Assembly (NCBI GenBank): GCA_963845755.1
Contig: CAWJTV010000019.1
Location: 256,001 to 320,000, forward strand
DNA length: 64,000 nt
DNA from: an uncultured Planctomycetota bacterium
GTDB taxonomy: Bacteria; Planctomycetota; Planctomycetia; Isosphaerales; Isosphaeraceae
Direction of reading: 5' to 3'
Positions 4,616 through 46,149 of this stretch are shown piece after piece. Within the stretch, counting starts at the first letter, position 1; each line of letters begins with the position of its first letter. The notes beneath the pieces were generated by a model. That model was given only the letters and a program-made list of their open reading frames with translations, did not search any database and was not told the DNA's origin. The position numbers and the translations under genes were made by a program.

Positions 4616-7600
4616 CTTCCAATCCCCGCGGAATCAGGGGTCACTTAGATCTGGTCGCCGACGACGAGGGCCGGCTCTGCCCGTTTCAATCCCCGCGGAA
4701 TCAGGGGTCACTTAGATCCGTTCAAATCGCAGGGGCGAGGGCCGAACACCAGAAGTTTCAATCCCCGCTGAATCAGGGGTCACTTAGATCTGGGCTACGG
4801 TGGATTTCGTTGTCCTGGCAGCAGTCTCAATCCCCGCTGAATCAGGGGTCACTTAGATCCAGAAAGAAGGGACCATGAACAACGATCCCAGTTTCAATCC
4901 CCGCTGAATCAGGGGTCACTTAGATCAGTGACCTGTCCCCGAGCTCAAAATCCGCGTCTTGAGTTTCAATCCCCGCTGAATCAGGGGTCACTTAGATCGA
5001 TATGGTCCGATGTCGAGCGCTCTGCGCAACACCGTTTCAATCCCCGCTGAATCAGGGGTCACTTAGATCTCGAAGGGGCGGTGGGAGAAGCAGAGAATTA
5101 GATGTGTTTCAATCCCCGCTGAATCAGGGGTCACTTAGATCCTCACCAGGGCTCATCCCGGTCCTTCAACGCTAGTTTCAATCCCCGCTGAATCAGGGGT
5201 CACTTAGATCCAACGATGCGAACAAAGCCAAGTTGGCTGGCTTGTTTCAATCCCCGCTGAATCAGGGGTCACTTAGATCTTCGAAGTGCACAACACAACG
5301 CTTCTCGCCTTGGTTTCAATCCCCGCTGAATCAGGGGTCACTTAGATCATGCCCACGCCGACGACCGCGGCCGGCCGCAAGTTTCAATCCCCGCTGAATC
5401 AGGGGTCACTTAGATCTGGGCCTGCCGGCGGTCGCCGCGTTGGTGCGGTTGGTTTCAATCCCCGCTGAATCAGGGGTCACTTAGATCACGTCCCAGCCAT
5501 GGCCGAGCGCAAGCACATGTTTCAATCCCCGCTGAATCAGGGGTCACTTAGATCGAATACCAGGACTCGGAATTCGAGCTGCACGCGGAGTTTCAATCCC
5601 CGCTGAATCAGGGGTCACTTAGATCCATTATTCTCCTGATTCTGAGATACGGCGCGTCCGTTTCAATCCCCGCTGAATCAGGGGTCACTTAGATCGAATC
5701 CTCGACATCCAGCCGGCCGCGGGGTTCGTTTCAATCCCCGCTGAATCAGGGGTCACTTAGATCATTGTCAACTCCAACGTTCGTTCTGCAAAGGAATCGT
5801 TTCAATCCCCGCTGAATCAGGGGTCACTTAGATCTCGCTGCCGCCGCCAATGCTGCTCAAGCGGAGAGGAAGTTTCAATCCCCGCTGAATCAGGGGTCAC
5901 TTAGATCACAGGTCGAACCGGGTGTGTTGCCCGGTCGAATCGGTTTCAATCCCCGCTGAATCAGGGGTCACTTAGATCGATGCGACGTCTCAAGAGAATG
6001 GGCTGGCGCGCCATGTTTCAATCCCCGCTGAATCAGGGATCACTTAGATCTGGATGTACCGATCTATCGCCGGTGCATGATGTTTCAATCCCCGCTGAAT
6101 CAGGGGTCACTTAGATCTGGTTCACCCGCGCCATCTCCGAAGCCCTAAAAGTTTCAATCCCCGCTGAATCAGGGGTCACTTAGATCGACGAACCGGACGA
6201 TGCCGATAAGCTCGCTGGTTTCAATCCCCGCTGAATCAGGGGTCACTTAGATCGGAAGTTCCTCAACATGAGCACCTGGACTTCTGCGTTTCAATCCCCG
6301 CTGAATCAGGGGTCACTTAGATCAAACGCAGACTTTGTACGGAAACAAAGCTCCTGGTGGTTTCAATCCCCGCTGAATCAGGGGTCACTTAGATCGGCGA
6401 CTTCGCCACGCTGACCGGCGGCGACTAGTTTCAATCCCCGCTGAATCAGGGGTCACTTAGATCTGGATCGACGCCTGCAGAATGAACCCACCTCGTTTCA
6501 ATCCCCGCTGAATCAGGGGTCACTTAGATCAACATGCAGAGGCTCTCGACAGAATTCGGGCCAAATGGTTTCAATCCCCGCTGAATCAGGGGTCACTTAG
6601 ATCGCACTGCGGGCAATATGTTCGGGCTTTTAGTTTCAATCCCCGCTGAATCAGGGGTCACTTAGATCGCTGCGCCTCACCGAGTCTCACCGGGACGATA
6701 TGTTTCAATCCCCGCTGAATCAGGGGTCACTTAGATCAGTACAGCGAGCGGCCAGTTTGCTTCACGGCTGTTTCAATCCCCGCTGAATCAGGGGTCACTT
6801 AGATCGTCCGACGTCTACTGGATCACGCTGACGGAGGACGGTTTCAATCCCCGCTGAATCAGGGGTCACTTAGATCGAGAACCGCCAAGTTCGACGCTGC
6901 GCTTCGCGTTTCAATCCCCGCTGAATCAGGGGTCACTTAGATCAACAACTGTTTTGGTTCGTCGTGAAGATGCTCGTTTCAATCCCCGCTGAATCAGGGG
7001 TCACTTAGATCGGTATACCATAAGGTTCAACCGACCCAAACTAGTTTCAATCCCCGCTGAATCAGGGGTCACTTAGATCGCAAAGGGAGATGTCGTCATC
7101 ATCCCGCCCACGGCGTTTCAATCCCCGCTGAATCAGGGGTCACTTAGATCAATATTAGAATAATTGTAGGTAGAGAAGAGTGTTTCAATCCCCGCTGAAT
7201 CAGGGGTCACTTAGATCTTCGGTCCTCGCTTTGATGAGCTGCCTTTCTGTTTCAATCCCCGCTGAATCAGGGGTCACTTAGATCGAAGGCACTCGAAGAG
7301 AGCGCTAGCTCCTTGGGAGAGGAGGTTTCAATCCCCGCTGAATCAGGGGTCACTTAGATCCCATTCCAGACAGACCGCTTCCGCAGGCAACAGTTTCAAT
7401 CCCCGCTGAATCAGGGGTCACTTAGATCCACGGCGCTCAACGAGGCCAAGCCGCGCGTCAAGCCGAGTTTCAATCCCCGCTGAATCAGGGGTCACTTAGA
7501 TCAAGAGCGCTGGCATTGCCTTCGCTCCCTTCGTTTCAATCCCCGCTGAATCAGGGGTCACTTAGATCTCCAGCTGCTGCACGTCTCCGCCGCCATGAAG

Positions 7601-8325
7601 TTTCAATCCCCGCTGAATCAGGGGTCACTTAGATCAAAAGCGCTTCTTCTACTTTCTTTTTTTTTCTGTCGTTTCAATCCCCGCTGAATCAGGGGTCACT
7701 TAGATCACAAACTGTAGCAGCATCAGCACAGTGAGTGCCTTGTTTCAATCCCCGCTGAATCAGGGGTCACTTAGATCATCTGTCGGGCGTGTCGCGATGG
7801 AAAATGAAGTTTCAATCCCCGCTGAATCAGGGGTCACTTAGATCAAGTGCCTTTCATCGAGATCATACTCACTTGTTTCAATCCCCGCTGAATCAGGGGT
7901 CACTTAGATCACCGAACTGGTCCAGGACGGTATGTCCTACGCGTTTCAATCCCCGCTGAATCAGGGGTCACTTAGATCGGAAGTGCCAGGGCTCATCGAA
8001 ACGGCTCTTGTTTCAATCCCCGCTGAATCAGGGGTCACTTAGATCTTTACCGGGAGTGGACCGACAAGGATAGGCCGCACGTTTCAATCCCCGCTGAATC
8101 AGGGGTCACTTAGATCGGGTCGAGAGTAGCCAGTCGGTCGGTGTGGTTGGCGGTTTCAATCCCCGCTGAATCAGGGGTCACTTAGATCCTAAGTTCTACA
8201 AGGTCATCAAGGACCTCAACGTTTCAATCCCCGCTGAATCAGGGGTCACTTAGATCGCAAAGAAATGTGTAGTAGTTAAAAGTCGAGTAGTTTCAATCCC
8301 CGCTGAATCAGGGGTCACTTAGATC
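4616..8325 (-). CRISPR. CRISPR array, 54 repeats / 53 spacers (manual count); 36-bp repeat GATCTAAGTGACCCCTGATTCAGCGGGGATTGAAAC in transcribed orientation
   Basis: Repeats read directly; spacers ~29-40 nt. The ATTGAAAC 3' end on the minus strand, degenerate copies at the left (4616, 4683, 4824) and cas2 to the right all indicate minus-strand transcription. Confidence 0.98.
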
Positions 8326-8700
8326 TGCACATCCGGCCACATGTAATCTGGAAATCGTCCCAGACTGTCCTGGCATATCGACTTCCGATCAATCCGGGAT
8401 GCACGTGCCGACAAGTTAACGCGCAGTATCCCACTTGGCCACCCCTCACGTGGTTTTTTTCGGCTTGCGTTTCCGCCGGCGCCAACCAAAGCGAGAGGCG
8501 CAAACGGCGTCCCCGCGTCCCCGAGAGGACCCAGAGCAAGACCGAGGCCGCAAACCGCGGCCAGCCGCCCTGCTGTAGCGACCCGCTCATTCGCGCCCGT
8601 GGGGCCAACCTACGCCCCGGCAGGAAACGAACGGGAGTCGCGGGGGAGCGATGAACCCCCGTGCGGTATACGCTGGAACTCCCTCGGAAGTGCGAACCAT
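8326..8700 (-). promoter_or_regulatory. CRISPR leader region
   Basis: Non-coding gap between the cas2 stop and the conserved end of the array. Confidence 0.7.
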
Positions 8701-8973
8701 TCACACCACGATCACGGCATCCTCGGCGACCGGATCGCGCTGCCAGGAGATGCGTCGTTTGGGGAATCGGCGGTCGATGGGGAAAAGATCGAACGCATCG
8801 GTCTTGGCCAGCAGCAGGCCCACGCGGAACCGCAGTTCGTCGAGGTCCTCCGGCTCGACCTCGATCTCGAAGACGCTCCGCTGGACGCGGCGGCCATACT
8901 CCAGGAGGATCTCGGCGACGCGGGCCCGCCGGGAATCGCGGGTGACATCGTAGGCGGCGACGTAAAGGCTCAT
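8701..8973 (-). CDS. cas2: CRISPR-associated endoribonuclease Cas2
   Basis: 'YVAAYDVTRDSRRARVAEILLEYGRRVQRSVFE' canonical Cas2 motifs. Confidence 0.95.
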   Translation of the reverse strand: MSLYVAAYDVTRDSRRARVAEILLEYGRRVQRSVFEIEVEPEDLDELRFRVGLLLAKTDAFDLFPIDRRFPKRRISWQRDPVAEDAVIVV

Positions 8974-11738
8974 GGGTGTTCGAACGGCTCCCAGGGTGAT
9001 TCGGGGTCGACCAACCGGCGTCTCAAACCGCGGGCCGTGGCGAGAAACTGCGCCAGCCAGGGCCGCGGCTCGGTCTGGCCTTTGCCGATGACGCCCGTCT
9101 TCCAGCTCCTCTGCATCAGCGCGTGAAACGTCTTCGCGGCGTGGTGCTCCAGTACCAGTGGATAAGGACCGTCAAAGCGCGGGACGAACTGGGACGGCTT
9201 CAAAATGCGCGTGGCCAGGATCACGGCCCGCTCTACCAGATGACGGAACGGCTCCTGAAGGTCGGCGGCGAGCGAGGCATAACGGCCGTCACTGGCGTGC
9301 AGGAACCCGACCGCGGGCGAAAGTCCCGCCGCCCGGCAGGCGGCGATCGCATGGCGGTAGAGCATCGTATGGCCCATGTTCAGCATCACGTTGACCGGGT
9401 CGCCGGCATCGGGCGCACGCGCAGATGAAACGAAAACCCCCTGCCGAGAAGCGAGGGGAGCCGCCGATACCACGCCGCCGCGCCCGACCCTTCATGCCCG
9501 CGCAGCGCGTCGAGCGACCCGGCCGTCATGCATTCCTCCGCCAGCTCGCGGAGCCGGACGGCGGTCGGTTCGCCGGGCTCGGTCGCGGCTTCCAGCAGGG
9601 CTGCGAAGTTCCGCAGCTTGGCCCGAACCAGCGGACGCGCCAGGAGCAGGGCGCATCGCCGGGTCGGCGGCAGCCAGGCATTGCAGCAAGATCGCCTCGG
9701 GATCGTCGGGTGGCTCGCTCACCAGATCGCCGATGGGCCAGCCCGCGTCGGAGAGCAGATGAACCGGAATCTTGCTGCGAAGGAGCTTGCCGGGAGCATC
9801 CGGGCTCCAGCCGGCCGGCCCCAGCACGATCAGCCGCTCCAGCGTGCTCAACGGGACGTCCTTGTCGTCGCTCTCGTCGGGGCCGCGAATCTTGAGTGAG
9901 TCGCCCACCACGTCCAGAAGCGTGATCCCCGGCCCAGCCACGATCACTCCCGCACCCACCTGGTGGGGCGTCTCCTGGGGCAACGCGAGCGCGAGCACCG
10001 ACGGCGTTCGATCAGCGTCCTTCCAGCCCAGCTCCTGCACCCGTCGCGGACCCGATGGCCCCGCGTACTGCCATCGCTCCTCATGACGAAATCGGTACCC
10101 CAGGAAGTCGAACGGCTCGCGGACGTCGATCACGGCGGAATCGGCGTTGAGCTGAAGCAGGAGATCGGCGGCCAGCTCCTGCGCGCGGACGTGCAGCCGC
10201 TCGGCATCGCCGCGTCGGCGCGTGAAGATCAGGAAGTCGTCCGCGTACCGGACCAGCCGTCCTCCCTCGTTCTCGATCGCTTCGTCGAACTGGTCGAGCA
10301 GCAGGTTTCCCAGCAGCGGAGAAAGGGGCGCGCCGGTGGGTATCCCCACGTCGCCCGGCAGCTCGGCCTCGACGAAGGACCACACCGCCGCCGTCGCTCG
10401 GTCGTCGCCGAGACAGGCTTCCAGCCGGTCGCGCGCGAGCTGACGCGGAACGCGATCGAAGAAACGGTCGAAGTCGGCGCGCACCGCAAAATGCCAGCCG
10501 TCGTTGACCAGGCGCTCGATGCGACGCGCCGCCGACGCGCGATTCAGTCCCCGACGCCAGGCGAATGAGGAGGTCTCGAAGAGTCGGTCCAGGGCCGGAC
10601 CCAGCCGCGCCAGGATCAATCGCTGCAAAGCCCGGTCCTCGACCGGCGGGATGCGCAGCTCGCGCGACGCGCCGTCAGCCGATCGCAAGACCACGCGATG
10701 AGCCTGGCCCGGCTGGTACGTGCCGGCCCTCAATTCTTCGGCGGCACGCCGGAATGCCTCGGGCTCGAGGTCATGCTCCGCGGCGGAATGTGAGATGGCC
10801 GCGGGCGAGAGGCAGAGATCCAGCAAGGGCCTGGCCCGCTGGCACTCGGTCGGATCGGGGCCAAGCTCCTCGATGCGGTAGCGACCAAAGCCGAAGTGCA
10901 GGTTCTTGCCGATGCGGGTGTACTGTCCCCACATCAGCGCCGCGACGGCGACCGGGTCGTGCACGGCGACGGTGATCCGCCCGAGCGCGCCCCGAGCGAC
11001 TTCCGCTCGTCGCGCCGCCCGTACTCGAGGTCGAGCCACGTCAGACGATTCGCCAGCAGCGTGATGGCCGAATCGTCAAAGGGGGCCTCGGCACCAGTAT
11101 CGGTATCGGTGTTATGATCGCGGCGACGTAGCCCGATGGCCGCGAGCCGCTTCTGGACGGTACGAAGGAACTGCCCGACGTGCAGGCCGGCGGCATCGGC
11201 GTAGCGATGTCCGGACTGCGCTTCGGAGCCGGGCCGTTCGAGCCGGAGCGGGCTGTGGAATCGAAGCGTCAGCGACTGGCCGGCCATGGCGTACAGCCGT
11301 TCGAGCTCCCGGTCGATCGTATCCAGACCGAGTGCCGCAAACGGTTCGCCCGGTGCCAGAGATCGTTTCGCGACGAGGTCTTGCACGTTGACGAGGTCGA
11401 AATTGCCTCCCAGCGCGACGGGCTTTCGCGGAGCGTCGTGCCCCACCCTGGCGAGCCCCTCGGAGATCGCGCAACCGCCGCAGCGCCATCGCGGGGTCGA
11501 ACTCGATGAGCGTGGCGCCAAAGGCAAAAAGATCGCCGGGCTCGTACCGATCGCGACACTGCTCCGGGGCATCCAGGAGCAATCCCTCCGGCATGTGCGA
11601 CGGCCGATCGGCGTCGTTCCCCCGAGCGGCATCACACAAGAGTGCGTAAAGGATGGCGTTCTGGTGACTGTGCAGAGTCCACGCCGATCGCGCGCGAAGC
11701 GTCCAGCGGACGCGGAAGAACGGTGTCTCGATTGACAT
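8970..11738 (-). CDS. cas1: Cas6-reverse transcriptase-Cas1 fusion (several frameshifts)
   Basis: N-terminal Cas6 with G-loop 'GQYTRIGKNLHFGFGRY'. RT motifs 'LRIPPVEDRALQ', 'ADFDRFFD', 'GIPTGAPLSPLLGN', 'RYADDF'. Cas1 motifs 'DPVNVMLNMGH', 'GFLH', 'LAADLQEPFR'. The Cas6 C-terminus, RT and Cas1 N-terminus share one frame (9492-11039). Confidence 0.88.
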
Positions 11739-11964
11739 CGATCCAGCTCCCGGATCATGAGGGGATTGGGAGAAGCGGGGCCGTCGGCTCCGACACGGGT
11801 CCCCAGCGTCGCCGGAATCCGTAATCGGGCAAGGAGCCGCCGTACCAGCCTTCCGGTCGAGCGATCAGGAAACGGTTTTGGGGCCGGTCCCCTGGGATCC
11901 GCGCGAACCGATCCGCGACGACGGCGCTCCGGTCGCAAGGGAACACGACGACAGTCAACCGCAC
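11735..11964 (-). CDS. Possible small degenerate Cas2-like protein (needs one frameshift)
   Basis: 'VRLTVVVF..DRSAVVADRFARIPGDRPQNRFLI' weakly resembles the Cas2 beta-alpha-'G.R.Q..F' pattern; lies directly upstream of the fusion gene. Confidence 0.25.
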
Positions 11965-12066
11965 ACCGGGGAGGATCCGCGCGGTCTCCCGGGCGCTCTC
12001 AGCCGGGGCTGTCGGTTCGTTCGGCAGTGATCCCCTGGGCAGAGCGGTTGGCCACTGGGAGTTTGG

Positions 12067-12680
12067 TCAGGCGATCAAATCCGTCGCAAGTTCCTGAGCC
12101 TGTTCGCGATCGTTTCTTGGTTGGCCAGACAGTTCGGAGAGCCCGTGGGCCACTTTCTTCGTGAACGACACCGTGATCCGATACCACGAGTAGCCTGCAA
12201 GCGCCGTAAGTAATACCCCCAAGAGGCCGACGAGCCAGGCCAACACGGCCTGGGAGACCCCGAACTCCGGCGCCACTGCCTGCCGATAAACAGCTCGCCG
12301 CACAGGGTGATGAGTGTGAAATTGAACACGGACGATCGGCAGATCCTTACCCTCGTCCTCATGTAATCGAACTGGCGGGACAGCCATTCGTCCCGCTTAC
12401 GGCCGAGGAGACGCGTCACGGTCGGGCCGTCGTCATGCATATATCTGCGTCGGATGCGTCAACTAATGGGATGGAGCAGGTCGTCAGCCAGGTTGTCGAC
12501 GAATACGCCAGCCGGGTAAAGAATCGGCAGCAGGGCTGCCGCGATGGCCACCTCCCACCCTTTGAGTTCCTTCAGCGCGGCGGGATCGAACCCGACGAAG
12601 CTCGCGACGAGCAGGCACAGCCAGATGCCCACCTGAACGCCGGAGATCAGCAAATCCACGAAGAGCAATGTCGTGTTCAT
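12067..12680 (-). CDS. CRISPR-associated ~200-aa membrane protein with about 4 TM helices (two frameshifts)
   Basis: Joined ORFs 12459-12680, 12075-12440 and 12067-12387: 'MNTTLLFVDLLISGVQVGIWLCLLV', 'LLPILYPAGVFVD', 'DYMRTRVRICRSSVFNFTLITL', 'LAWLVGLLGVLLTALAGYSWYR'. Start overlaps the NTPase stop. Confidence 0.7.
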
Positions 12681-13301
12681 GATTCTTGAAGGGCTGCAAC
12701 GCCTTGCGGGTTGACGGCGGGCTCCGGGGCGCTCGCCAGTCGGACCAGAAGCCGGGCTAACTCCCGGACCATCGGACGTTCGTGGACGGGCTCACCGCGT
12801 TCCAAACGATGGATCGAGCCGGTCAGGAGACCCGTGTCCTTCCAACGAACGTCATCTTCAATGCCCCCGTAGTCGCTCCAGATTTCGGCCACAACCGTCA
12901 GACCCACTCGAGCCGCGAACTCACGCCACTCGTCAAACGCACCGCGGTCGCCAGCCAGGAGTATGGCGTGGGTCGCCCCGGCGCTGATCTTCTCATTCTT
13001 CTCGTCGGGCACGCCCCCGATATCAACCAGCGTCAGTGGCTCCGCACAGTTTCTTACCGAATTGGCGACGAGTTGTACGAACTCGGGAGTGAATCGCGCT
13101 ATAGGCTTTCTTGTATGCCTGGGCCCTCGCGGAATCACGTCGAACGGTTTCCTGATACCAGGCTCCCTCACCGTCGGGACAGGCGGTGATGACATAGCAA
13201 TAGGGGGCGCCGGATATGTGCGACACCGCGTCCTTCAAACCCTGCCGCAGGCAAGACTTGCCCGACTGCGGTGGGCCGCACAAGACCACTTTGATGCTCA
13301 T
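12677..13301 (-). CDS. Csx3-associated P-loop NTPase (frameshifted)
   Basis: Walker A 'VVLCGPPQSGKS', 'ACPDGEG.W', Walker B-like 'LTLVDIGG', 'ATHAILL'; follows csx3. Confidence 0.8.
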
Positions 13302-13355
13302 CGAGCACTCTCCGAACTGTCACAATCCCAAGGAAAACCCCTCGGAGATGATCGA

Positions 13356-13671
13356 TTACTCCAGTTGCTGCCCCAGTTCGAAACTCGGGGTCATGGGTGA
13401 TACACACGACGTAGCCGGGGGAGAGTTTTGGATCGCGCCAGGCCAGCGCCTCGAACTTATGAGCGACCTCATGTGCAAGCACCACGGCGACGAGCACCGA
13501 CACCGGCCCGTTGAACTTGACGAGCTTCCCACCGGTCAGGTTCAGCTCTCTGATGGCCGCCACTGCATCGCGAATGATCTCCGGGTTCTCCGCCGGGGCA
13601 CCGAATGAGGTGCGCAGTTCTACAACTCCATGGGATTCTTCTATGATCTCGACCGTATAATGCTTCGCCAC
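13356..13671 (-). CDS. csx3: Csx3/Crn3-family ring nuclease, copy 2 (one indel near the C-terminus)
   Basis: 'GGKLVKFNGPVSVLVAVVLAHEVAHKF.ALAW.DPKL..GYVVCITHDP'; GTG start behind a GGAGGG RBS. Confidence 0.8.
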
Positions 13672-14111
13672 GTGCCCCTCCCATTGGTTCATCGCTCGTT
13701 GCGACAGCGCCGAAGCGATCGCACTCTACTGCGTCAGATCTCCACAAGCCCGCGGGCCTCTCACCAGCGGAAAGCCCGGGGGGCGGCGGACACTCAAGGT
13801 CGGCGGCCCGCGGCCCTGCCCATCGAGTTCGGAACCGAAGAGTATTCGCCGGGCTCCAACGAAGATTCAGGCTCCGCGCCGCCTGGGCAACTGGGTCAGC
13901 GGCCCAGCCCGCCGACCGCACACCTGATTGATCAGCATAAGCCACACCAGGGCGGATCCGCTACCGTGTGGCGTTCGAGAAAGACCTGGAGCACATTCAC
14001 GCTTGGATTGAGCACGCGGACTTGAGAAGCCGGTGCCGACAGATCGCGATCCCCCGACACTGGCACAGGACTGATCTCTTGGAGAGGCATGATTGACGAG
14101 ATCGGCGTACA

Positions 14112-14459
14112 TCAGGATGTGCCCATTGACTCACGCTCGCAACTCGCTTGTCCTCCGGTCGTTGGGCCAGGCCCCGCGGGGGCGGGAGTGGCCGGCGGCG
14201 TTACATCGATGACCTGGCCCTCATGCCACTCAGGGCGATGGGACGCCACGACGACGGCCCCCAGGCGGGGATCGTAGACGGCGATCGCCCCGGCCGGCGA
14301 GCCATGCAGGCGGTGAAAAGCGATGCCATAACGCCAGATCGGCGCGCGGCCCTCGATGACGACCAAGGCGCCGCGCGGGATCGTGGGCAACGACGGCAGT
14401 GGCTCCTCGGGCCGGATCGGCGCGGTGACGCCGATGGAGTAGAAGACGACATCAGTCAT
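14112..14459 (-). CDS. csx3: Csx3/Crn3-family ring nuclease, copy 1
   Basis: 'LVVIEGRAPIWRYG..FH.LH....IAVYDPRLGAVVVASH' classic Csx3 signature. Confidence 0.9.
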   Translation of the reverse strand: MTDVVFYSIGVTAPIRPEEPLPSLPTIPRGALVVIEGRAPIWRYGIAFHRLHGSPAGAIAVYDPRLGAVVVASHRPEWHEGQVIDVTPPATPAPAGPGPTTGGQASCERESMGTS

Positions 14460-14619
14460 CAAAGATGTCCCCGTTGTGATCCCGGACGATGGTCCTTGCC
14501 GCCATTTGGAGACCTCTGGTTTCGACTTTGGGTGATGGGCTAAGGCTATCTCCGACATTGGTGGGACGAGGATTCCAACTTGCTGCACGCTGGCCGCGCT
14601 CGCAACCGAGGACGCGGAG

Positions 14620-14837
14620 GTTTCAACGCCCTCGGCGCGGGCGAGACCTGTTAGGGTAGCAGCCAGTGCCATGCATGTCCCTTGCGAGACGTTTCAATCC
14701 CCGCTGAATCAGGGGTCACTTCGATCCGCAGCCCGAGACGAAAACAGCTCTCTCCTGTGTTTCTAATCCCCGCCGAATCAGGGGTCACTTTGATGTCGCA
14801 GCCAGTGCTATGCATGTCCCTTGCGAGTCGTTTCAAT
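14620..14837 (-). CRISPR. Degenerate hybrid mini-array: one heterologous repeat, two cognate repeats, one partial repeat, three spacers
   Basis: Cognate repeats at 14691-14726 and 14759-14795; GTTTCAAT remnant at 14830; a different 37-nt GTTTCAAC-starting hairpin unit at 14620-14656. Confidence 0.8.
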
Positions 14838-14839
14838 GT

Positions 14840-15094
14840 TCTTGGACCGGACGAGACACATAAATCTCGTGTCCTCCTCTTGAATTTACTCGGAAACCGA
14901 GGATAATTCAAGTATCGCGGGCGTAGAATTGGAGGGAGGGCAGAGTCTCTCCATATGTAGTGCTCGGTTGACCATTACGGAACGTGGTTTCATGACCTGT
15001 TATCATCGATGATTTCAAAAGCAGCCAACGTCATTCATGTCACCTTGGAGAGACTTCTCCAGAGCGATCCACTAATCCTATCTGGAGGAATTCC
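14840..15094. promoter_or_regulatory. AT-richer divergent promoter region between the two Cas arms
   Basis: Non-coding, lower GC; genes diverge on either side; GGAGG RBS before the ATG at 15095. Confidence 0.5.
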
Positions 15095-15440
15095 ATGACG
15101 ACCGTCTCACGATTCCAAATGGACCTGACTTCCGCCGAGCTGGGACTCATCGAGCGATGGATGCGCTTCGCAGGTTTCCGAACGAAGAAGGAGTTCCTGC
15201 TCAATGCGTTCACGCTGTTCCAGTGGGCTGCGAAGCAGGTCTTACTCGGCGCACGATCCTCGCCGTGAACGAATCCACAGGAGAAATCCGTCACCTGGAG
15301 ATGCCAGGCGCTGGCTGCGATCGGGGAAAGCTATCCACCGGGCACCCTCCTGACACCCGAGGAGACCCGACGGCGGGCTGCCCAACCGGGACAGCCTTTG
15401 GAAGAAGTCCTTTCGAAGCTTCGAAGAGGAGACCAAGATG
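15095..15440 (+). CDS. Putative antitoxin / ribbon-helix-helix-like protein (frameshifted, end approximate)
   Basis: Manual translation MTTVSRFQMDLTSAELGLIERWMRFAGFRTKKEFLLNAFTLFQWAAKQ...LLTPEETRRRAAQPGQPLEEVLSKL. Confidence 0.5.
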
Positions 15441-15744
15441 CCCAGGTCGCCTGTGGAGTGGACGCCGAAGGCGGTGGATGATCTCGCGAACATACAACGA
15501 TCATCCGGATTTGCACAACGAGATCACTTCCGTCGCGCAGGAGGTTGATAGCCAGCTCGCGAAAAACCCGCGACAATTTGGCGAGTGCCATCAGGATCCC
15601 GATGATCCTGACGGCACTGAAATGGGGGTTGCATTGGAACCCGTCAGCGCCGAGTTGCTGGTCCGCATCGAGTTCGAACTTGGGGACATCGTCAAAGTCG
15701 TCTCATTCAAGCCAGTGAAAAGGCGGAGGAGGAAGGCGGACTGA
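15438..15744 (+). CDS. Putative RelE/ParE-like toxin (one frameshift)
   Basis: MPRSPVEWTPKAVDDLA...EITSVAQEVDSQLAKNPRQFGE...LLVRIEFELGDIVKVVSF fits the RelE/ParE secondary-structure pattern. Confidence 0.6.
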
Positions 15745-15975
15745 TCCTCATTCGGGCCTGGAGGACAGATGCGTTGATTCCTCTCATGGGAGCGGGTAAG
15801 TTCTCTGAAGCGGGGACTGGCCGAGATGGCGTCGAGTCGAGACGCCGACGCCCCTGAGCGAGAACCCGCGCCGGTCTGCCGCCCGATGCCCTCGGGTCGC
15901 CGGGGGTTTGGGAATCGGCAGCGGTTCGAGGTTTGAACCAACCCCAGGTTGTGCCCTCATACAAAGGTTCCAACG

Positions 15976-17416
15976 ATGGGCCGCACCATTCGCGCCTCTT
16001 GCCCGGAATCCGAGGCCCCTGCTCTGGTAAAGCCTCCCGAGGGAGCCTGGAAGATTGGGGTTCGTCTGGTCACACCGTTGTTCGGAGGGGGACCTCGCCG
16101 GGCAGTACGACGTTGGCACACCGTTTGCCCCCAAGGCGATTCGCGGCCAGCTTCGGTTCTGGTGGCGCTCGTCGCGGGGTGGGCGCTTCCTCCCGACCCC
16201 GATCGATCTGCGGTTGAACTCATGAGCCTGCGGGAGACGGAGATCTTCGGCAGCGCCGAGTTGCCCAGCCCGTTCGATCTGATCGTCAGCGATGTGCGGC
16301 TCAACGGAGAGCGCCGCCTCGATGCGAAAGAGGAATACGAATTTGGGAGGTTGGGACCAGAGGCTTACGCGCTTTTCTCTGCGAAACAGAACAAGGTCGG
16401 GGCGATTGTGAAGGAAGGAGCGACGTTCACCCTCGAAGTGCGTTTGTCGTCGGCCCGGGCGTTCTCGCGAAGGCAGTCCATCGAACAACAGCGGCGTGAG
16501 GAATCGACGAAAACTGCTTCCGATGGCAAGCGCCGACCACTCGATTGCCTGGAACAAGAAGCTGTCCGGGATCATCTCCGCGCCGCGCCTGTGGGCATGG
16601 CTCAATCTCGGCGGCCTCGGCGCACGTACACGGCGGGGTGTCGGTTCCGTCACCACGGACAAGCAGGAATTCTCCTTCCTCGCGGACGGCAAGCTACGAC
16701 ATGCCCTCCCGGCGACGATCGTCTTGGCCGATCCTAAGCAGGGGACGACTGCGGCCCTGGCGTCGGGCAGCCGCAGTGGGAGTCTATCAGAGATTCCGCC
16801 AGGGATTCCGAAGGCCTCCCGGAAAGAAGGGCCCCGCACCGGGTCGCTCGAAGTGGCCTGAGCCCGACTCGCTGCGCAAATCGCAGGATGTGCCTTGGAG
16901 CCGCGCCAAGGCGACCCGCGCATCATTCCACGCCGGTCGTTCCCACTGAGACGATCCCTGGCTTCCCTCGCGCGGCCTTGGGCCTGCCAATGATCTTCCA
17001 TTTCGCCCACGGCGACGGGCCTGGCAAGGATCAGCCGCCCAAATCCTTCAAGGATCCAGCGGACGGATCTGAATCCCAAGATTGTTGGGTCGGATGCAAA
17101 ATCCCGCAGGGGAGCGGATGGCGAGCCCCGTCCTCACTCGTGCGGTGTGGATCGAAGGCCAATGCGGTGCCCGCGATCATCGTGTTGCGACATCCCCCGG
17201 CGTTGGACCGCTGATTTTTCCATTGGAACCACACCTGAACATCAAGGGCGTCAATGCCAAGGGGAACGCGAGGACAAATCGCGAGACGTCGCTCACGATC
17301 GGATCGTGAACCCGGCCTTCGCGACGCTCGAACCGATGCAGAAGCAAAGCAACGCACGGGACGCGCTCCTGGTCTTTGTCCGTGCGAACGGTTTCCGGGA
17401 CTTCCAAGGAAAATGA
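15976..17416 (+). CDS. cmr1: Type III-B RAMP Cmr1 (multiple frameshifts)
   Basis: 'LVTPLFGGG', 'ETEIFGS', 'WAWLNLGGLGARTRRGVGS', 'FPRAALGLP', 'RMASPV'. Confidence 0.85.
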
Positions 17417-19672
17417 GCCTGGCCATGGAATACCTGATGGCGGTCTCGATCGGCCCGGTGCAGGGATTCATCGCGGCGGCGAGACGGACCCGAGACTTCT
17501 GGATGGCTTCCACCATCCTGTCCGAGTGCGACAAAGCGGCCGCGCGCTGGATCGTCGAGCAGCCGCCCGGATCGGCGGATTCCCCCGATTAGAGCGGTTG
17601 ATCTTTCCGTCGCCACGCAACAGGTGGACGAGCCCAGCGAAAAGGATGCTCTCGCCGGGGCAGTGCCTCGACCTCAAGGCTTGGGATTTCACCGAGGATA
17701 ACACGTGCTCGCCATCGGAGCGACTTCAATGTTACGAACGTCTTGCTGTTCCGATTCCAGACCGAAGATCCCGGGGGAGGTTGTCGCTCTAATCCGCGAT
17801 GATGTGGTCGGACGATGGAGTTGGTTTGTCAAGCGGACTCTGGACCGCAAGGTCAGGGTCCTCGATGGGCCCCGGGCCGGCGAGGAATTGCCCGTCGAGA
17901 CCGACCTCTGGGATGCCGCCTTGTCGGGCCAACGCGAAGCCGCGAGAGACGTCTTTCAGAATTTCGCCGCCGGGGTCCCTATTGATGCCGCTCTCGGCAA
18001 GTACGGGGACGCGAGGAATCGCGTAATGAGGCTCCTAAATGGACGTAAGTCGTGTTGCGACTTCAAACCCTGGAAAGGGGTTGCCGGCCGGCCGAAATCC
18101 TCCTTGGACGGGGTCGCGCGAATCCGTCCTGAAGGAGCCTGTGGATCGCGTATTACCCTTGGACATTCGGCCGGGCGAACAGCTCGATCTGGTGGGGCTG
18201 GTCAAGCGACTCGAGTTCGGCAACGATGCGATCCGGTTCCCTTCCGTGTCGCGCCTGGCTGCCGACCCATGGATTCGGGCCGCATGCACGGACCCTCAGG
18301 CCAGAAAGAGCCTTGAGAAGATCGAGGCGATTTGCGAGGAACTTCGTGGGCTCAACCTGATCCGAAAGCGAATGTACTTTCCTAACGCGGCCAAGGAGGA
18401 CGATCCGCCAAAGTTTCCTTGGTGGGACGATTTCCCTTTCGAAGGATCTCCGTCGTCGTTCATTTCCCGCCACCGGGAACTGATGCCGGCAACATCCGGC
18501 ATTCGAGCCGGACTTCAAACCACGACCGGGTGAGGACCCGGTAGCGACCCGAAAGCGGGAGGAGCCGGTCGGATCACTGGAGAACCCGGTCCTCTCAGAT
18601 CGAGCAGAAGCTTGACTTGGTGGAAGATTTGGTAAGATGCATGAAGCCCTCTCTCTGCGAACCATCTCCTTATTTCGCCATCGTCGTGGCCGACGGCGAC
18701 GGCATGGGGCGGACGATCTCGTCCCTTGCATCGCTGGACGACCCCGATATTCACCGAGCCTTCTCGCTGGCCCAGTCTGTCTTCGACGACGAGGTGCGCT
18801 CCCACGATCGATGGGAGATCCCCTGCGGAAATCCGCGATCCGGGGTCCCGAGGGTGATTCGCGAGTGGTCGGATTTCATGGCGCCACCGTCTTCGCCTCC
18901 CGGTGACGACGTCCTGTGTTTTCTCCCAATCGACCAGTGCCTCGTCGGGGCGAGGATGATGCACGACCTGTTCGATCAGATCCTGCGCCGAGAGTTCGAA
19001 AAGTCGCCTTCAGGTGTGACCGCTCTCCGGCATCTTGAGGACCAGGGACCGATGCCGACTCTCTCCGTCGGCATCGCCATCGGACACTTCATGGAACCGC
19101 TCGAAGACCTCCTCGCTTTCGCGAAAGCCGCGGAGTATCGTGCGAAGAACCCGACAAAAGAGGACGTGCCTTTGCCGCCAAGTCTGCGCAACGGTCTGGC
19201 TCTCGCAATCCATCCTCGAGGCGGGGCGGCCTTTACCGTGCGCGATAACTGGTCCGGAGTCGATTCCCCCGGTTTCCAGCCCCTGGATCGGCGACTGCTC
19301 GAGTGGGCAGAATTACACCAGGAGAAAGTTCTCCCCACCAAAGCGGCCTATGATTTGCATTTGGCCTCGCGTTTTTACACGAACTGGAAGTCCAACACTG
19401 ATGCCGACAAGGAAGCCCTCCGGCGAGCCATCCGGTCGAATTGCCTCCGGTACTCGCGCGGGAGGCGGTTCCGCCGGTAGGGAGGATGACAGGAGGAAGG
19501 TGCGCGACCTAATCCAGAACGTCCGGAACACCTCAGATCTGGAGAGCCTGGCCCATGAGCTGATTGCCGGCCAGTGGATCGGTGATGCGTCCGGCAGGCA
19601 TCAGTCCCGCGGCCTGACGGCAATCAGCCAGGAGAACCGTCTCAACAGCACGCCCCCGGGGGAGTCGTCTGA
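17413..19672 (+). CDS. cas10: Cas10/Cmr2 without an N-terminal HD domain (multiple frameshifts, end approximate)
   Basis: 'SIGPVQGFIAAARRTRDFWMASTILSE', 'PKSSLDG', 'GEQLDLVGLVKR', 'YFAIVVADGDGMG', 'GDDVL', 'TLSVGIAIGH'. Confidence 0.9.
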
Positions 19673-20960
19673 TGTCGGCATCGAGCATCTACCTGTCACT
19701 GACTCCCCGCGATCCGCTGATCCTCGGGATGGGCGACCGTTCTCCGCCGGGTACCGGATGAAGTCGCTGGACTGGTTCTATCCGTCCGTGTTGGCGGGCT
19801 CGTTGCGGACCTTACTCGGCCAGAAACAGGGGGGGTTTCCGCCACAAGGTTCCGACGAGTATAGCCGGCTCGTCCACTCGCTCAAACAGGTCGAGTGTGC
19901 CGGGCCTTTTCCTTGCGTCACGAGGGATGGAAAGCCTCCAGAACTCTATTCTCCACGTCCGGGGGATTTTGTGGTACGGAAGAAATGTGGGAGGCTGCAG
20001 GGCCTCCCGGTCCGACCGTGGGATCTGGACCAGGAGTGTGGTGGATGCGATCTACCGAAAGGCCTCTCGCCTGTGATTCTGAATCCCGAGGTCGTGAAGG
20101 GCGAGTTCAAACCTTCGCCGGTGCCGGCATTCTGGTCGCGGTCGCAAATCACTTCGTGGCTGACAGACGCCACCGGGACTTCCTTTCGGATGAGAACTCA
20201 ATGGGGGGATGGAGATCTGGACGCTCCGTGCAAAGAGGAACGGACTCATGTCAAAATGAGTTATGATCTGGCGCCGGGCAAGATGGCAACCTCTTTCAGA
20301 CGACGGGCCTCGTCCTCGAGGAACTTCCTCGTCCTGATCAAGAGGAAGAATGCCTAAAGACTGCTCAATCCATCATCTTGGTGTCTCGGCTCGTCTGCGG
20401 CCCTGAAAGCCCGTTCCAGACGATCGGTGCCTCCCTCAATGACTCCTCTCCCTTCGGTGGAGAACGGCGTCTCATGCACTGGCAGGCGGGAGGCGCCCCC
20501 GCCGTCGTGGGATTGCCCTAAGGCGGTGAGGGATGCCCTCAATACTCTCGAGCAGGAAGATCAACCGTGTTCGTTCGTATGGTCCTTGCCACGCCGGCAT
20601 TGTTCCGGCGCGGGTGGTGTCCGGGCTCGATGGATAGAAAACACTCACCGGCGAGGTGCCGGGAACGGGTGTGAGCGTCCGACTCATCGGGGCTGCAACG
20701 GAACGGTGGAGGCCGGTCTCGGGTTGGTCATACGAAACGGCTCTTGCGCCCAAGCCCGTCCGTCGCGTCGTTCCCGCCGGAGGTGTCTTTTTCTTTGAGG
20801 TCACGCCGGGCAGCCCTCGTCCGCCGTCTCGCTGGCGGATCACTGGCTGAGATCGGTCTGCGACGATGAACAGGATCAACGCGATGGCTTCGGCCTCGCT
20901 CTTTGGGGAGTCTGGAAACCGTTTAAAGACACGCACACTTTTATAGGATCAGCCCGATGA
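19672..20960 (+). CDS. cmr3: Type III-B RAMP Cmr3 (frameshifted)
   Basis: 'LTPRDPLI..DGRPF', 'YPSVLAGSLRT', 'PVSGWSY....PKPVRRVVPAGGVFFF', 'DGFGLALWG'. Confidence 0.88.
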
Positions 20961-21934
20961 GCACGGCAATGTCACCGACGGTGGGACAAGTGGCGCGACA
21001 CCGTGCAAGGTCCCTACTGGATTCACGCGCTGACGCCGCTCCATGTCGGCTCCGGTCGCGGGATTGGGTTCATCGACCTGCCGATCATGCGCAGAAAGCC
21101 ACCGAGTATCCCTTCGTCCCGGGATCGGCCGTGAAGGGCGTCCTGGCGGATCATCATGGCGCCGATGATGAGGCCCGCGACCAATCGAACAAGCAGAATG
21201 GCAGGTTCAAGCCGGACCTGAAACTGGCGTTCGGGTCGGGGGGAGATGAGTTCGCCAACTCCGGAGCAATCGTTTTCACCGACGCGCGACTCGTGTGTCT
21301 CCCGGTTCGCAGCCTGTATGGAACATTCGCCTGGTGCACGTCGAACCTCATCCTGAAGCGGCTCCAACGCGACCTCGTCCGTTGTCACCATTCCTGGAGA
21401 CCGCTGCCACCTCAGGCGACAAAGATCGACCGAATTGTCGTCACGAACCTATCGACCTCGGCGTTGAAGGATCAGGATCAGCGGGCCTTCTTCGAGGACC
21501 TCGATTTCACCATGGAGACCAGTGAAGCCGCGGAGGAGTGGGCGAAGTCGCTGGCCGAGTCGGTGTTTGCTGATCCCGACTGGCAGAAGCTTTTCCTCGA
21601 TCGATTCGCCGTCGTTCACGACGACGTCTTTACGTTCCTCTGCGAGACGGCCACGCAAGTGGACGCGCGCGTGAAGATCGACGACGACACCAAGACCGTC
21701 GCGAAAGGCCAACTCTGGTACGAGGAGTCGCTGCCGGCGGAATCGATCCTGTCTGGTATCGCCTGGTGCGGGCCGGTATTCGGTAACAATGGGAACCGAA
21801 ACGACCCAGAGAAACGGCGCCAACTCATGAAGGACTTCTGCGGCGGTTCTCACTATCTGCAACTTGGCGGCAAGGCGACGGTTGGTCGAGGCCAGGTGCG
21901 GTTGACTTTCTCGGACGGAGCCTCGGCGGGCTGA
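20957..21934 (+). CDS. cmr4: Type III-B RAMP Cmr4 (compensating frameshifts near the N-terminus)
   Basis: 'PFVPGSAVKGVL', 'FTDARLVCLPVRSL', 'LWYEESLPAESIL', 'LQLGGKATVGRG'; alternative frame gives 'LTPLHVGSGRGIGFIDLPI'. Confidence 0.93.
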   Translation: MSTAMSPTVGQVARHRARSLLDSRADAAPCRLRSRDWVHRPADHAQKATEYPFVPGSAVKGVLADHHGADDEARDQSNKQNGRFKPDLKLAFGSGGDEFANSGAIVFTDARLVCLPVRSLYGTFAWCTSNLILKRLQRDLVRCHHSWRPLPPQATKIDRIVVTNLSTSALKDQDQRAFFEDLDFTMETSEAAEEWAKSLAESVFADPDWQKLFLDRFAVVHDDVFTFLCETATQVDARVKIDDDTKTVAKGQLWYEESLPAESILSGIAWCGPVFGNNGNRNDPEKRRQLMKDFCGGSHYLQLGGKATVGRGQVRLTFSDGASAG

Positions 21935-21994
21935 GGACTCTTCCTTCCTCCAAGGCCCGCGAGGGCCAACCTCTTCTTGAATGACAAGAAATCT

Positions 21995-22418
21995 ATGAGT
22001 ACCACATCCGAAAGCAAGCCCATCCGAACCCGCCAGCAGACGATGGCCCAGGCTGCGTTCGAACACGTCGATCGTCGGCACGGCGCACGGATCGACATCC
22101 CCAGGGAATCCGCTCCTTCGCGCCTCTCGTTCCCATCATTGATCCAGGCTGCCGGGCTGTGTCAAGCCGTTGCATTCGCCCAGGCAAAGGGAGGAAGGAA
22201 CAAGGAGGTCTTGGACGACGTAGTTGCGACGATCAAGGAATCGAAGAGTTATGAGGGAGATTTGAGGAAGACATGCACAGAAAGGCGTCGGCGAGTACCT
22301 TCGTTTGACGCGTCTGGCTCTCCAGGCCGCGACGTGGGTCAAACGATACGTTCGAGGCGCTTGACAGAGAGACGAATGGGCCACCCAGAACCAACTTGGC
22401 GAGCACCCTGAACACCAG

Positions 22419-22431
<13 letters not shown>
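21995..22431 (+). CDS. cmr5: Type III-B small subunit Cmr5 (frameshifted, end approximate)
   Basis: 'RTRQQTMAQAAF', 'FPSLIQAAGLCQAVAF', alternative frame 'ATWVKRY'; lies between cmr4 and cmr6. Confidence 0.82.
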
Positions 22432-23690
<1,259 letters not shown>

Positions 23691-23790
23691 CTCGCTATCC
23701 CGGTCTGTCTACGAGATGCAAACGGGTGAGAGCCCGAGTCCATCCCTCTGTCATGACGAGGACCGTCGGCGTACGGAGCAGCCCGAATTC

Positions 23791-24871
23791 ATGTGGCGGC
23801 ATCTCTGTTTGACCGTACTCCAGGCCGAGTACCGGACCGATCGCTCTTGCGAGCTGCCGGAATACCTAGGCTCGACGTTGCGCGGGGCGTTCGGCCAGGA
23901 GCTGCGCGGTGAGCTGCGTCGAGGAGGGTTCGCTGTGCGCGGTTTGTCGGCGGCCGGATCGTTGTGCCTCCGGGGCGATGTTCGATGACCAGGTGATGTC
24001 CCTCCCACTCGATAGGGAGGGAAGGGGTGAATCCCCCCTCATCCGGCCCTACGGGCCACCTTCTCCCCCGAGGGGAGAAGGACTTTCCCTGGGCTTCGAC
24101 CGGCCGCGGGCGTATGTCCTCGTCCCGCCGCCGCGGCGCCGGGGCAGTTATGCGGCCGGCGAGACGATCCGGTTCGGAGTCACCCTCGTCGGCCGGGGTC
24201 GGGTCTGGTCCCCGTGGGTCGTCGCCGCGATGGCCGGGATCGGTCGACGGGGCATCGGCGTCGAACGGCAGCATTGGTCGCTGGTCCGGATCGGCGCGGT
24301 CGGTGCCGACGGCGGTCTCGTCGAGATCGATCCCGGGACCGCCGGCGACGGAGCGGTCGTCCCCGAGCTCTCGGGCGCCGGGATCATCGCCGACGGCCCG
24401 CCTCCCACTCCCCAGGCCATCGTCGCCCTGGTCACTCCGGCCGACCTTCAGCAGAAGGGCCGGCGGCTCGATCGGCTCGATGGGCCCGCGTTCTTCCGTC
24501 GGCTCATCCGACGCATCGGCACCCTGGTCGAAACCTATTGCCCCCCGTCGCCGGAAGCCGGGGCCTGCGATTATCGCGCCCTGGCCGATCTCGCCGACCA
24601 GGTCGCGGTGGAAGACCAGCAGGTCGCCGTCCAGACTTGGGAACGCTACAGCAACCGTCAGGAGGCCAAGCATCCCCTCTCCGGTCTGGTGGGACAGGCC
24701 CTGTTCACGCACATCCCGGAACCCCTCTGGCCTTATCTGATCCTCGGCCAATGGGTCCACGTGGGTAAGGGGGCCAGCTTCGGCCAGGGGCGCTACCTCG
24801 TCTTGCCGCAGGACGAGTCCGAGACCAGGTCGATCCCGAGCTCCGTGCGTTCTCGCAGGCCCGGCTGGTAG
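23791..24871 (+). CDS. cas6: Stand-alone Cas6 (one frameshift near the N-terminus)
   Basis: 'LPEYLGSTLRGAFG', Cys cluster 'C....C..C....C', C-terminal 'LGQWVHVGKGASFGQGRY'. Confidence 0.9.
23999..24081. repeat. REP-like palindromic element inside cas6
   Basis: TCCCTCCC..GGGAGGGA, GGCCC-TAC-GGGCC and CCTTCTCCCC-CGA-GGGGAGAAGG hairpins. Confidence 0.65.
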
Positions 24872-44735: not shown

Positions 44736-46149
44736 TCAATTCCTGCCATAGGCGTCGTGCTGTCGCCGTCGGTTGGAGGTGAACTCCTCGACGGTATCGC
44801 GGGTGATGACCTCGTAGAGGACGGCCTCCTTGTCGCCCGACTTGCGGAGGACGCGGCCCAGGCGCTGGACGTGCTCGCGGACTGAGCCCGACCCGGAGAG
44901 CACGACCGCGACGTTCGCCTCGGGCACGTTGACTCCTTCGTTGAGCACGCGCGAGGTGGCGACGATCGGATAGGTGCCGGCATTGAATTTTAGCAGGACA
45001 TCGCGGCGCTCCTTCGTCTTGGTCTGGTGGGTGATGACGGGGACCAGGAACTTGCGTGCGATGGTGTAAACGGTCGCGTTGTCGTCGGTAAAGATCAGCA
45101 CGCGGTCGCCGTTGTGACGCTCGAGCAGGCGGCCCAGGAGATTCAGCTTCGCGGGGGCGCCCAGGGCGAGCGCGCGCTGCTCGCGGTAGGAGCGGAACGC
45201 CTCGCGGCCCTCGGCGGATTGGTGGGCCACGTAGATGAACCGGCTCCAGCCATTAGGCCCTCTCATATCGATGCCCATGTCGCGCACAAAGCCGCGATAA
45301 ATCTCTCTCGCACGCTCGTAGCGCGGCTCGTTCCTCGTCGCTCAACTGGACATATAACGTCATCACGCGGTAGTCGGCCAGGTAGTGGCCGCGGAGCTGG
45401 GTGATCTCGCGGCGGTAGACGATCGGACCGATCAACTGATCGAGGTGCGTGTGTGCGTTGTCGGCGCGCTCGGGCGTCGCGGTCAATCCCAGGCGGAACG
45501 GGGCAATGGCGCAGGTCGCGGCATAGCCGTAGGTCGGGCCGGGGAGGTGGTGGCACTCGTCGAAGACGATGAAGCCGAACCGGTTGCCCAGGCGGTCCAT
45601 GTTCAGGTAGGCCGAATCGTAGGTCGTCACGGTCAAGGGGCGGATGTCGTAGTAACCGCCTCCCAGGAGGCCGACCTCGACGCCGAAGCTAAGCACCAGC
45701 TCGTCGTACCACTGGTTCATCAGGTCGATGGTCGGAGTGATGACCAGGGTGGGCCGGCCGGTCCGCTCGATGCACAGGTTGGCCAGGTGCGTCTTGCCGG
45801 TCCCGGTCGGCAGCACGACCACGCCCTGACCACCGGCCTCCCACCAGGCCTTCAGGCCCTCGACCTGATGCGGAAACGCATCCTTGGCCACCTTGAGCCG
45901 CCAGGGCGTCGGCTCGTACGCCCGCGCGGCGTCCTGGTAGGGGCGCTTCTGATGCCGCAAATGCTCGACGACCGGGCGATAGCAGATCGCCTGGGCCCGG
46001 AACTGACGAGTGCGGAAGTCGTACTTCACGCCCGGCAAGCCATGCTCGTCGTCCTCGCGCAGGCCCTCGACCACGAGCGTGCCCTCGTCGAAGGCCAGCC
46101 GCAAGGGCGGGTTCGCGTGGCCATTGGGTGACTCGCCGAGGGTGGTCAT
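44736..46149 (-). CDS. XPB/Ssl2-like SF2 helicase (one frameshift)
   Basis: 'LPTGTGKT', 'FDECHHL', 'LGLTATPER', 'VLNEGVNVP', 'QRLGRVLR'. Confidence 0.92.

Follow-up and report, generated by a model that had tools for sequence, protein, structure and literature searches.

Does a gene whose reading frame is broken at four places still encode a fusion of Cas6, reverse transcriptase (RT) and Cas1? The question is raised by a 64,000-nt stretch, hereafter the window, of an uncultured planctomycete genome of the family Isosphaeraceae (assembly GCA_963845755.1, contig CAWJTV010000019.1, positions 256,001 to 320,000), in which a Cas6-RT-Cas1 gene on the minus strand is followed by cas2, a leader and a long CRISPR array. 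Judged from its sequence, the gene is a genuine Cas6-RT-Cas1 which, together with cas2, makes up the adaptation module of a type III-B locus. We consider it probable that the four breaks are indel errors of the assembly, and that the living gene is one intact frame of ~920 codons.

The Cas6-RT-Cas1 gene and its four breaks

The gene was delimited by a frameshift-aware DNA alignment against P0002 (914 aa) and P0004 (954 aa), two intact relatives from a homologue search. Beginning at the ATG at 11738, where the gene starts, the alignment continues to the final codon ahead of cas2 (8973); it spans P0002 residues 1-914, with 612/914 residues identical, exactly four frame changes and zero stop codons. 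In the following list of the gene's segments and breaks, G000 is the window's own genome, G046 a congeneric genome and X1 a metagenome run, and dN/dS (the ratio of nonsynonymous to synonymous substitution rates) is calculated against the G046 copy.

11738-8970, minus strand: Cas6-RT-Cas1 gene, ~920 codons when read through the four breaks
11471-11738, minus strand: segment 1, N-terminal part of Cas6; dN/dS 0.037
11467-11470 (alignment 11462-11468), minus strand: break 1, lacks 2 nt that are present in G046 (CA) and in the X1 contig
10990-11466, minus strand: segment 2, middle and C-terminal part of Cas6; dN/dS 0.228
10986-10989, minus strand: break 2, 1 nt missing at a four-G run (minus strand) before the G-rich loop; common to G046
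9656-10985, minus strand: segment 3, G-rich loop, RT and Cas1 N-terminus; dN/dS 0.159
9655 (alignment ~9650), minus strand: break 3, 1 extra nt, absent in G046
9417-9654, minus strand: segment 4, central part of Cas1; the EG motif has its conserved E at 9493; dN/dS 0.044
9416/9417 (alignment ~9414), minus strand: break 4, 1 nt missing; a G is present in G046
8970-9416, minus strand: segment 5, C-terminal part of Cas1, including the conserved H (9299), D (9263) and E (9254); dN/dS 0.051

The sequence-only reading of this stretch had placed the Cas6 G-loop, an RT with an intact YADD motif and the Cas1 N-terminus in one frame, with the Cas1 C-terminal motifs after an indel. The first part stands, as all three elements share the 515-aa open reading frame (ORF) at 9492-11039 on the minus strand. 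The picture of one frame and one indel does not: there are four breaks, and Cas1 alone is distributed over three frames. Nor does the main frame hold the whole of Cas6, since two other segments (11738 to ~11471 and ~11467 to 10990) carry the first two thirds of this domain.

Each of the three domains could nonetheless be traced. The RT domain matched PF00078 (6.4e-20) and TIGR04416 (2.8e-45, under the latter model's full-length cut-off), and its YADD motif lies at 10247-10236, with the aspartates at 10241 and 10238. The Cas1 profile PF01867 was covered from position 10 to 282 but across three frames, with positions 10-96 followed by 97-183 in a second frame (ORF 9392-9697, 1.1e-10) and by 184-282 back in the first (ORF 8970-9473, 1.4e-20). 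For the Cas6 domain, the window's separate pieces gave no direct Pfam or NCBIfam match; when read through the breaks, the domain aligns with those of the relatives, and the glycines G243, G246, G270, G276 and G278 are kept. Break 2 falls inside PF10040, a family match that in another relative, P0003, extends over residues 159-282.

The conceptual translation preserves what the family preserves. In a family alignment of 33 sequences, it keeps 57/57 invariant and 95/98 nearly invariant columns, among them the G-rich-loop glycines, RT residues D415 and D493/D494 (of YADD), and E741, H806, D818 and E821 of Cas1, which we take to be the metal-binding residues of that enzyme. A profile built from the 33 relatives matched the Cas6-RT-Cas1 structure of Thiomicrospira (7KFT) over positions 13-913 of 921 (E 8.9e-165) and the Cas6 domain of Marinomonas mediterranea MMB-1 (6DD5, E 5e-20), the next matches being group II intron RTs and Cas1 structures. 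Together with the invariant columns, these matches bear out the earlier suggestion that a Cas6-RT-Cas1 and Cas2 module feeds the array.

The congener carries an ortholog (94.4% identical in DNA, 96.1% in protein) that also has four breaks, three of which are at other places. At the site of break 2 there is no indel between the window and G046, and both are one base short of the intact relatives. Over 906 codons, dN/dS between the two copies is 0.115, and the individual segments range from 0.037 to 0.228. The values are low in the segments downstream of the breaks as well, indicating that those segments were under purifying selection.

Independent sequence for the break sites came from short-read peat and soil metagenomes, from which contigs of four runs in two studies (X1, X2, X3 and X5) were aligned to positions 8300-12200. 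These contigs come from relatives that are 85-100% identical, with only X2 close to the window. At 9416 a T is inserted in X2 and X3, which belong to two studies; at 9655 one letter is dropped in X3 and X5; at 10989 a C is inserted in X1, X3 and X5, all of one study; and at 11467 CA is inserted in X1. These are exactly the changes that restore the frame at the four sites; each contig that bridges a break has the restored form there, and the window's version is backed by 0 contigs. In the coding region the contigs showed no further indel relative to the window, and none at the sites broken in G046 only, where these were covered.

Full-length fusions were found in three of 121 genomes of the host family, namely G000, G046 and G068, a member of another genus whose copy is an intact 933-aa frame. 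In 16 other family genomes with matches, the RT part matched alone, like group II intron RTs. Matches to the RT part alone are also numerous in G000 itself (e.g., C41:23350-23928, C41:28865-29443, C47:7572-8150 and C47:18902-19480), and some of them score identically, which suggests multi-copy group II intron-like elements.

Assembly error, inactivation or a split gene

The assembly of G000 (14.27 Mb, 49 contigs, completeness 87.88%) contains frame breaks well outside the CRISPR locus. The rpoC gene (C34:567326-571694) gave profile matches in two frames; against the intact rpoC of G046, with which it shares 1422/1463 residues, it changes frame at C34:569329 (+2 nt) and C34:571064 (+1 nt), and once more at residue 24, a change that may precede the true start. 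Within the window, frame changes also seem to split an XPB-type helicase (45253-46197 / 44736-45287), a sensor histidine kinase with PAS and GAF-HisKA-HATPase parts (34589-35710 / 32827-34611), a pseudouridine synthase that continues into a Uma2 ORF (~47188) and an ABC-2 permease (~50573). Scanning the whole genome by codon potential yielded 2781 frameshift-like junctions; 41.8% of the 14,141 3-kb windows held at least one, and 3.3% held three or more. The same scan caught three of the four breaks of the Cas6-RT-Cas1 gene.

For a background rate we counted lasting frame changes in blocks conserved between G000 and G046 (the 15 of 119 high-scoring segment pairs that reached 1,000 nt in length and 88% identity). 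Over 33,818 nt these blocks showed 37 such changes, a rate of 1.09 per kb (range 0-3.04). The fusion gene had 6 over 2,802 nt (2.14 per kb), about twice the block mean and within the range, three of the 15 blocks being at 3.04, 2.20 and 2.13; by hand arithmetic, the Poisson probability of at least 6 changes is ~0.09. Lasting frame changes were used in place of raw blastn gaps, which we rejected as an error measure: they gave 134 frame-shifting gaps in 30 kb, but 16 of these fell in rpoC, compared with 2-3 at the protein level. Homopolymers were likewise rejected as the cause, as runs of at least 4 nt occurred within +/- 8 nt of 1,199 junctions, whose positions are approximate, at a frequency of 0.104, as compared with 0.112 at 20,000 random coding positions.

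Several observations weigh against assembly error as the explanation. The break density of the gene is about twice the background mean, with four breaks in 2.77 kb, and the G046 copy also has four. The neighbouring cmr genes appear more broken than the flanking housekeeping genes, so that the locus may genuinely be decaying. The 54 repeats of the array (1,944 nt) are free of indels, which is slightly unexpected if errors occurred locally at 1.4 per kb, and random errors account poorly for break 2 being common to G000 and G046, the chance of such a coincidence being estimated at ~0.03. The junctions are not enriched in homopolymers, so no simple error model applies. The contigs at the break sites stem from relatives, X2 alone being close, and a search of public reads found neither a run with at least half of the sampled words (best share 0.10) nor an RNA run. 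Much of this would suit a different history, in which some or all of the indels are real and the gene is a recently inactivated pseudogene, perhaps along with the whole III-B locus, leaving the array as a relic that no longer grows: the doubled break density, which places the gene in the top 3.3% of 3-kb windows of the codon-potential scan, the four breaks in G046, the spread of cmr2, cmr3 and cmr6 over several frames and the indel-free repeats all point that way. We nevertheless hold inactivation to be unlikely. The gene has zero stop codons and has kept all catalytic residues and every one of the 57 invariant positions, and dN/dS is 0.04-0.23 in every segment, the downstream ones included, so that any inactivation would have to be very recent and to have happened independently in two lineages. 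In addition, the essential rpoC is broken in the same assembly, the core blocks change frame at the rate given above, and all bridging short-read contigs are intact.

Break 2 deserves separate consideration, as it is shared by the two genomes while three others are private to each; a systematic miscall, chance or a genus-wide feature could each produce such a pattern. Were break 2 a real feature of the genus and the other breaks errors, Cas6 and RT-Cas1 would be separate polypeptides, or would be joined by ribosomal or transcriptional slippage, and the locus would carry a natural split or recoded triple fusion with both sides under purifying selection. The window and G046 do have the same length at this site, one base less than the intact relatives, purifying selection acts on both sides of it, and Silas et al. 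2017 (PMC5513706) mention secondary fissions of such fusions. A GTG at 11039 opens the downstream ORF, although its role as a start codon is conjecture. We regard this as very improbable, because the split would cut Cas6 inside PF10040 and part the G-rich loop from the remaining fold, because three peat-metagenome runs (of one study) carry the extra base, because no slippery heptamer or long homopolymer was seen by eye (without a motif scan), and because both assemblies are error-prone. Programmed frameshifting at all four breaks was rejected outright, as their signs and contexts differ and three of them are absent in G046. Assembly error thus remains our favoured account of the four breaks.

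The type III-B locus, its array and leader

The window's locus is type III-B with an RT-containing adaptation module. Its other features are as follows.

4616-8325, minus strand: CRISPR array
8326-8700, minus strand: leader, 375 nt, between cas2 and the newest-end repeat, adjoining the non-degenerate end of the array
8701-8973, minus strand: cas2, 90 aa, intact; PF09827 1.4e-13, TIGR01573 2.2e-12
13171-13725: weak Csx3-like ORF; PF09620 E 0.0056, under cut-off
14115-14693, minus strand: csx3/crn3 ring-nuclease homologue; PF09620 8.5e-22, TIGR02579 4e-19
15937-23690, plus strand: cmr1-cmr6 operon, the type III-B effector, with RAMP family matches
~16412-16858, plus strand: cmr1, weak RAMP match only
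17239-17589, plus strand: Cmr2_N, and 18545-19477, plus strand: Cas10 palm2; Cmr2 family TIGR02577
within the operon, plus strand: Cmr3, profile positions 12-184 and 292-341 in different frames
20957-21934, plus strand: Cmr4, intact; TIGR02580 2.5e-49
within the operon, plus strand: Cmr5, family match
within the operon, plus strand: Cmr6, TIGR01898 in two ORFs
23870-24868, plus strand: separate cas6; PF10040 5.1e-12, the Pfam family of the fused Cas6 domain

Both the 53-spacer array and the cas2 gene named in the sequence-only reading were recovered. The array has 54 repeats, each 36 nt long, separated by 53 spacers of 29-40 nt that are all different, and its orientation agrees with that of the cas genes on the minus strand. 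Fifty of the 54 repeats are identical; the variants lie at 4616 (3 changes), 4683, 4824 and 6015 (1 change each), and this degeneracy on the 4616 side marks the left end as the old, trailer end and places the leader on the right. Read in the minus-strand direction, each repeat forms a 5-bp hairpin and then ends in ATTGAAAC, although the fold is no better than that of shuffled sequences (z-score -0.89, not significant). We take the ATTGAAAC end to resemble the 8-nt tag of Cas6-processed type III CRISPR RNAs (crRNAs).

The ATG of cas2 and the stop codon of the fusion gene overlap by 4 nt. A 129-aa ORF that covers the leader (8315-8704) had no family match in a Pfam scan and is probably not a gene. 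Three peat-metagenome contigs (records 1, 16 and 24) cover 8300-8910, that is, the leader and most of cas2, with 42-45 changed letters in ~520-610 nt and 2 nt inserted at 8569-8570.

The whole array gave no blastn match (E <= 0.01) in the one phage collection searched. Two spacers partially match the host genome: spacer 19 (5908-5942) at C3:44276-44310 (28/35) and spacer 29 (6604-6632) at C36:278682-278710 (25/29). When the ORFs at both sites were compared with PHROGs, there was a single weak match, to a tape-measure protein (E 5e-4), in the coding segment that contains the spacer 29 match in sense orientation. The site might belong to a prophage-like element that resides in the genome and is related to what the spacer truly targets.

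On the effector side, cmr2, cmr3 and cmr6 each extend over more than one frame. The separate Cas6 is related to the fused domain, with 34% identity to P0002 over 50 aa around the G-rich loop (E 4e-4), and the small minus-strand ORFs at 12070-13234 had no family match. Between G000 and G046, identity is 92-94% for the array repeat, the leader, cas2 and the fusion gene, and in a megablast against 60 kb of G046, window positions 8075-11754 formed the sole aligned stretch. The csx3-cmr stretch (window 12053-23800 versus G046:C12:140214-150074) had no blastn match within these 60 kb, and is flanked by short G046 matches at 11894-12053 and 23800-23949. This pattern suggests that the effector module was exchanged or has diverged much more.

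A second CRISPR-Cas locus is present at G000:C36:380000-397000 (L021), with DevR/Cas7, Cas3 HD, Cas1, Cas2 and a PD-(D/E)XK protein; it looks like type I. Its Cas1, the second of this genome, is split over two frames. The L021 array (10592-16834 in L021 coordinates) has ~84 repeats of 37 nt, and the repeat ends in ATTGAAAC, as does the window repeat on the minus strand.

Relatives, proposed working and significance

The homologue search returned 80 long relatives; precomputed domain assignments give both RT and Cas1 for 78 of these, and for 53 the Cas6 family PF10040 in addition. Named relatives are Tuwongella immobilis (Gemmataceae) and metagenome-assembled genomes (MAGs) labelled Planctomycetota, Planctomycetia and Pirellulaceae, in agreement with the planctomycete-like host proposed earlier. 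Relatives closer than Tuwongella (53-76% identity) come from metagenomes and MAGs only, and a search of genome contigs with P0002 found as its sole match the 1.5-kb MAG contig of P0002 itself. The database protein closest to the 515-aa ORF by BLASTP is P0001 (906 aa, 76% identity). Its Cas1 C-terminal region appears out of frame with respect to the other relatives, and it too was probably predicted from a frameshifted assembly.

In published classifications, Cas6-RT-Cas1 fusions belong to Silas branch 1 / Toro clade 8, with MMB-1 in the Cas6-RT-Cas1 branch (PMC5513706), and occur independently in clade 11 of Bacteroidetes (PMC5513706, PMC6013744). Table 1 of Toro et al. 2017 (PMC5541045) lists 16 Cas6-RT-Cas1 fusions in a combined clade 8 row and places Planctomycetia, with Beta-, Gamma- and Deltaproteobacteria, in clade 8B, where the RT of the window likely falls as well. 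With Planctomycetia already in that clade and so many long relatives at hand, the earlier description of the enzyme as divergent was overstated. A named counterpart is the annotated protein P0015 of Tuwongella immobilis (918 aa), which has PF10040, PF00078 and PF01867, shares phylum and architecture with the window's gene and is 46% identical to the 515-aa ORF.

Two further systems invite comparison. The Cas6 domain of Marinomonas mediterranea MMB-1 (type III-B, Silas branch 1, Toro clade 8A) is homologous, whereas the window locus additionally has a separate cas6 and csx3/crn3. MMB-1 is reported to acquire spacers from RNA and to depend on its Cas6 for this (Silas 2016, Mohr 2018). The other system belongs to Thiomicrospira, a gammaproteobacterium, whereas the window's host is a planctomycete. 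The Thiomicrospira protein (7KFT/7KFU; PMC8102632) has the domain order Cas6-RT-Cas1, as in the window's gene. According to Wang et al. 2021 (PMC8102632), D540 of RT, the active-site residue H873 of Cas1, R835 of Cas1 and R37 of Cas6 are functionally important; by eye, D540 and H873, both mutated in that study, appear to match the invariant D493/D494 and H806, which the window keeps. The relationship is distant (197.6 bits between P0002 and 7KFT), the RT motif is YADD in the window and, according to the same paper, FADD in Thiomicrospira, and the window's copy is, unlike the Thiomicrospira gene, broken four times as assembled.

By analogy with the family, the Cas1 domain and Cas2 would insert new spacers beside the leader, at the repeat at 8325, and the RT domain would permit the integration of RNA-derived protospacers, so that the window's enzyme may be expected to acquire spacers from RNA. 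The fused Cas6 domain, perhaps with the separate Cas6, would then cleave the array transcript inside every repeat, so that the repeat's 3' end stays on the crRNA as a tag. The Cmr complex would apply these crRNAs against complementary transcripts, and Csx3/Crn3 would degrade the cyclic-oligoadenylate signal.

Conserved coding sequence in this assembly, rpoC included, carries a frame-breaking indel roughly every 1-2 kb, and pseudogenes, split genes or frameshifts called from G000, and probably from G046 too, should be discounted until these assemblies are polished. The gene itself is an ordinary member of a family that is already catalogued and structurally characterised. It adds one more planctomycete example of a type III-B locus that combines Cas6-RT-Cas1 with a long array and, if intact in vivo, would be a further candidate for RNA recording, though not one set apart from its dozens of relatives.

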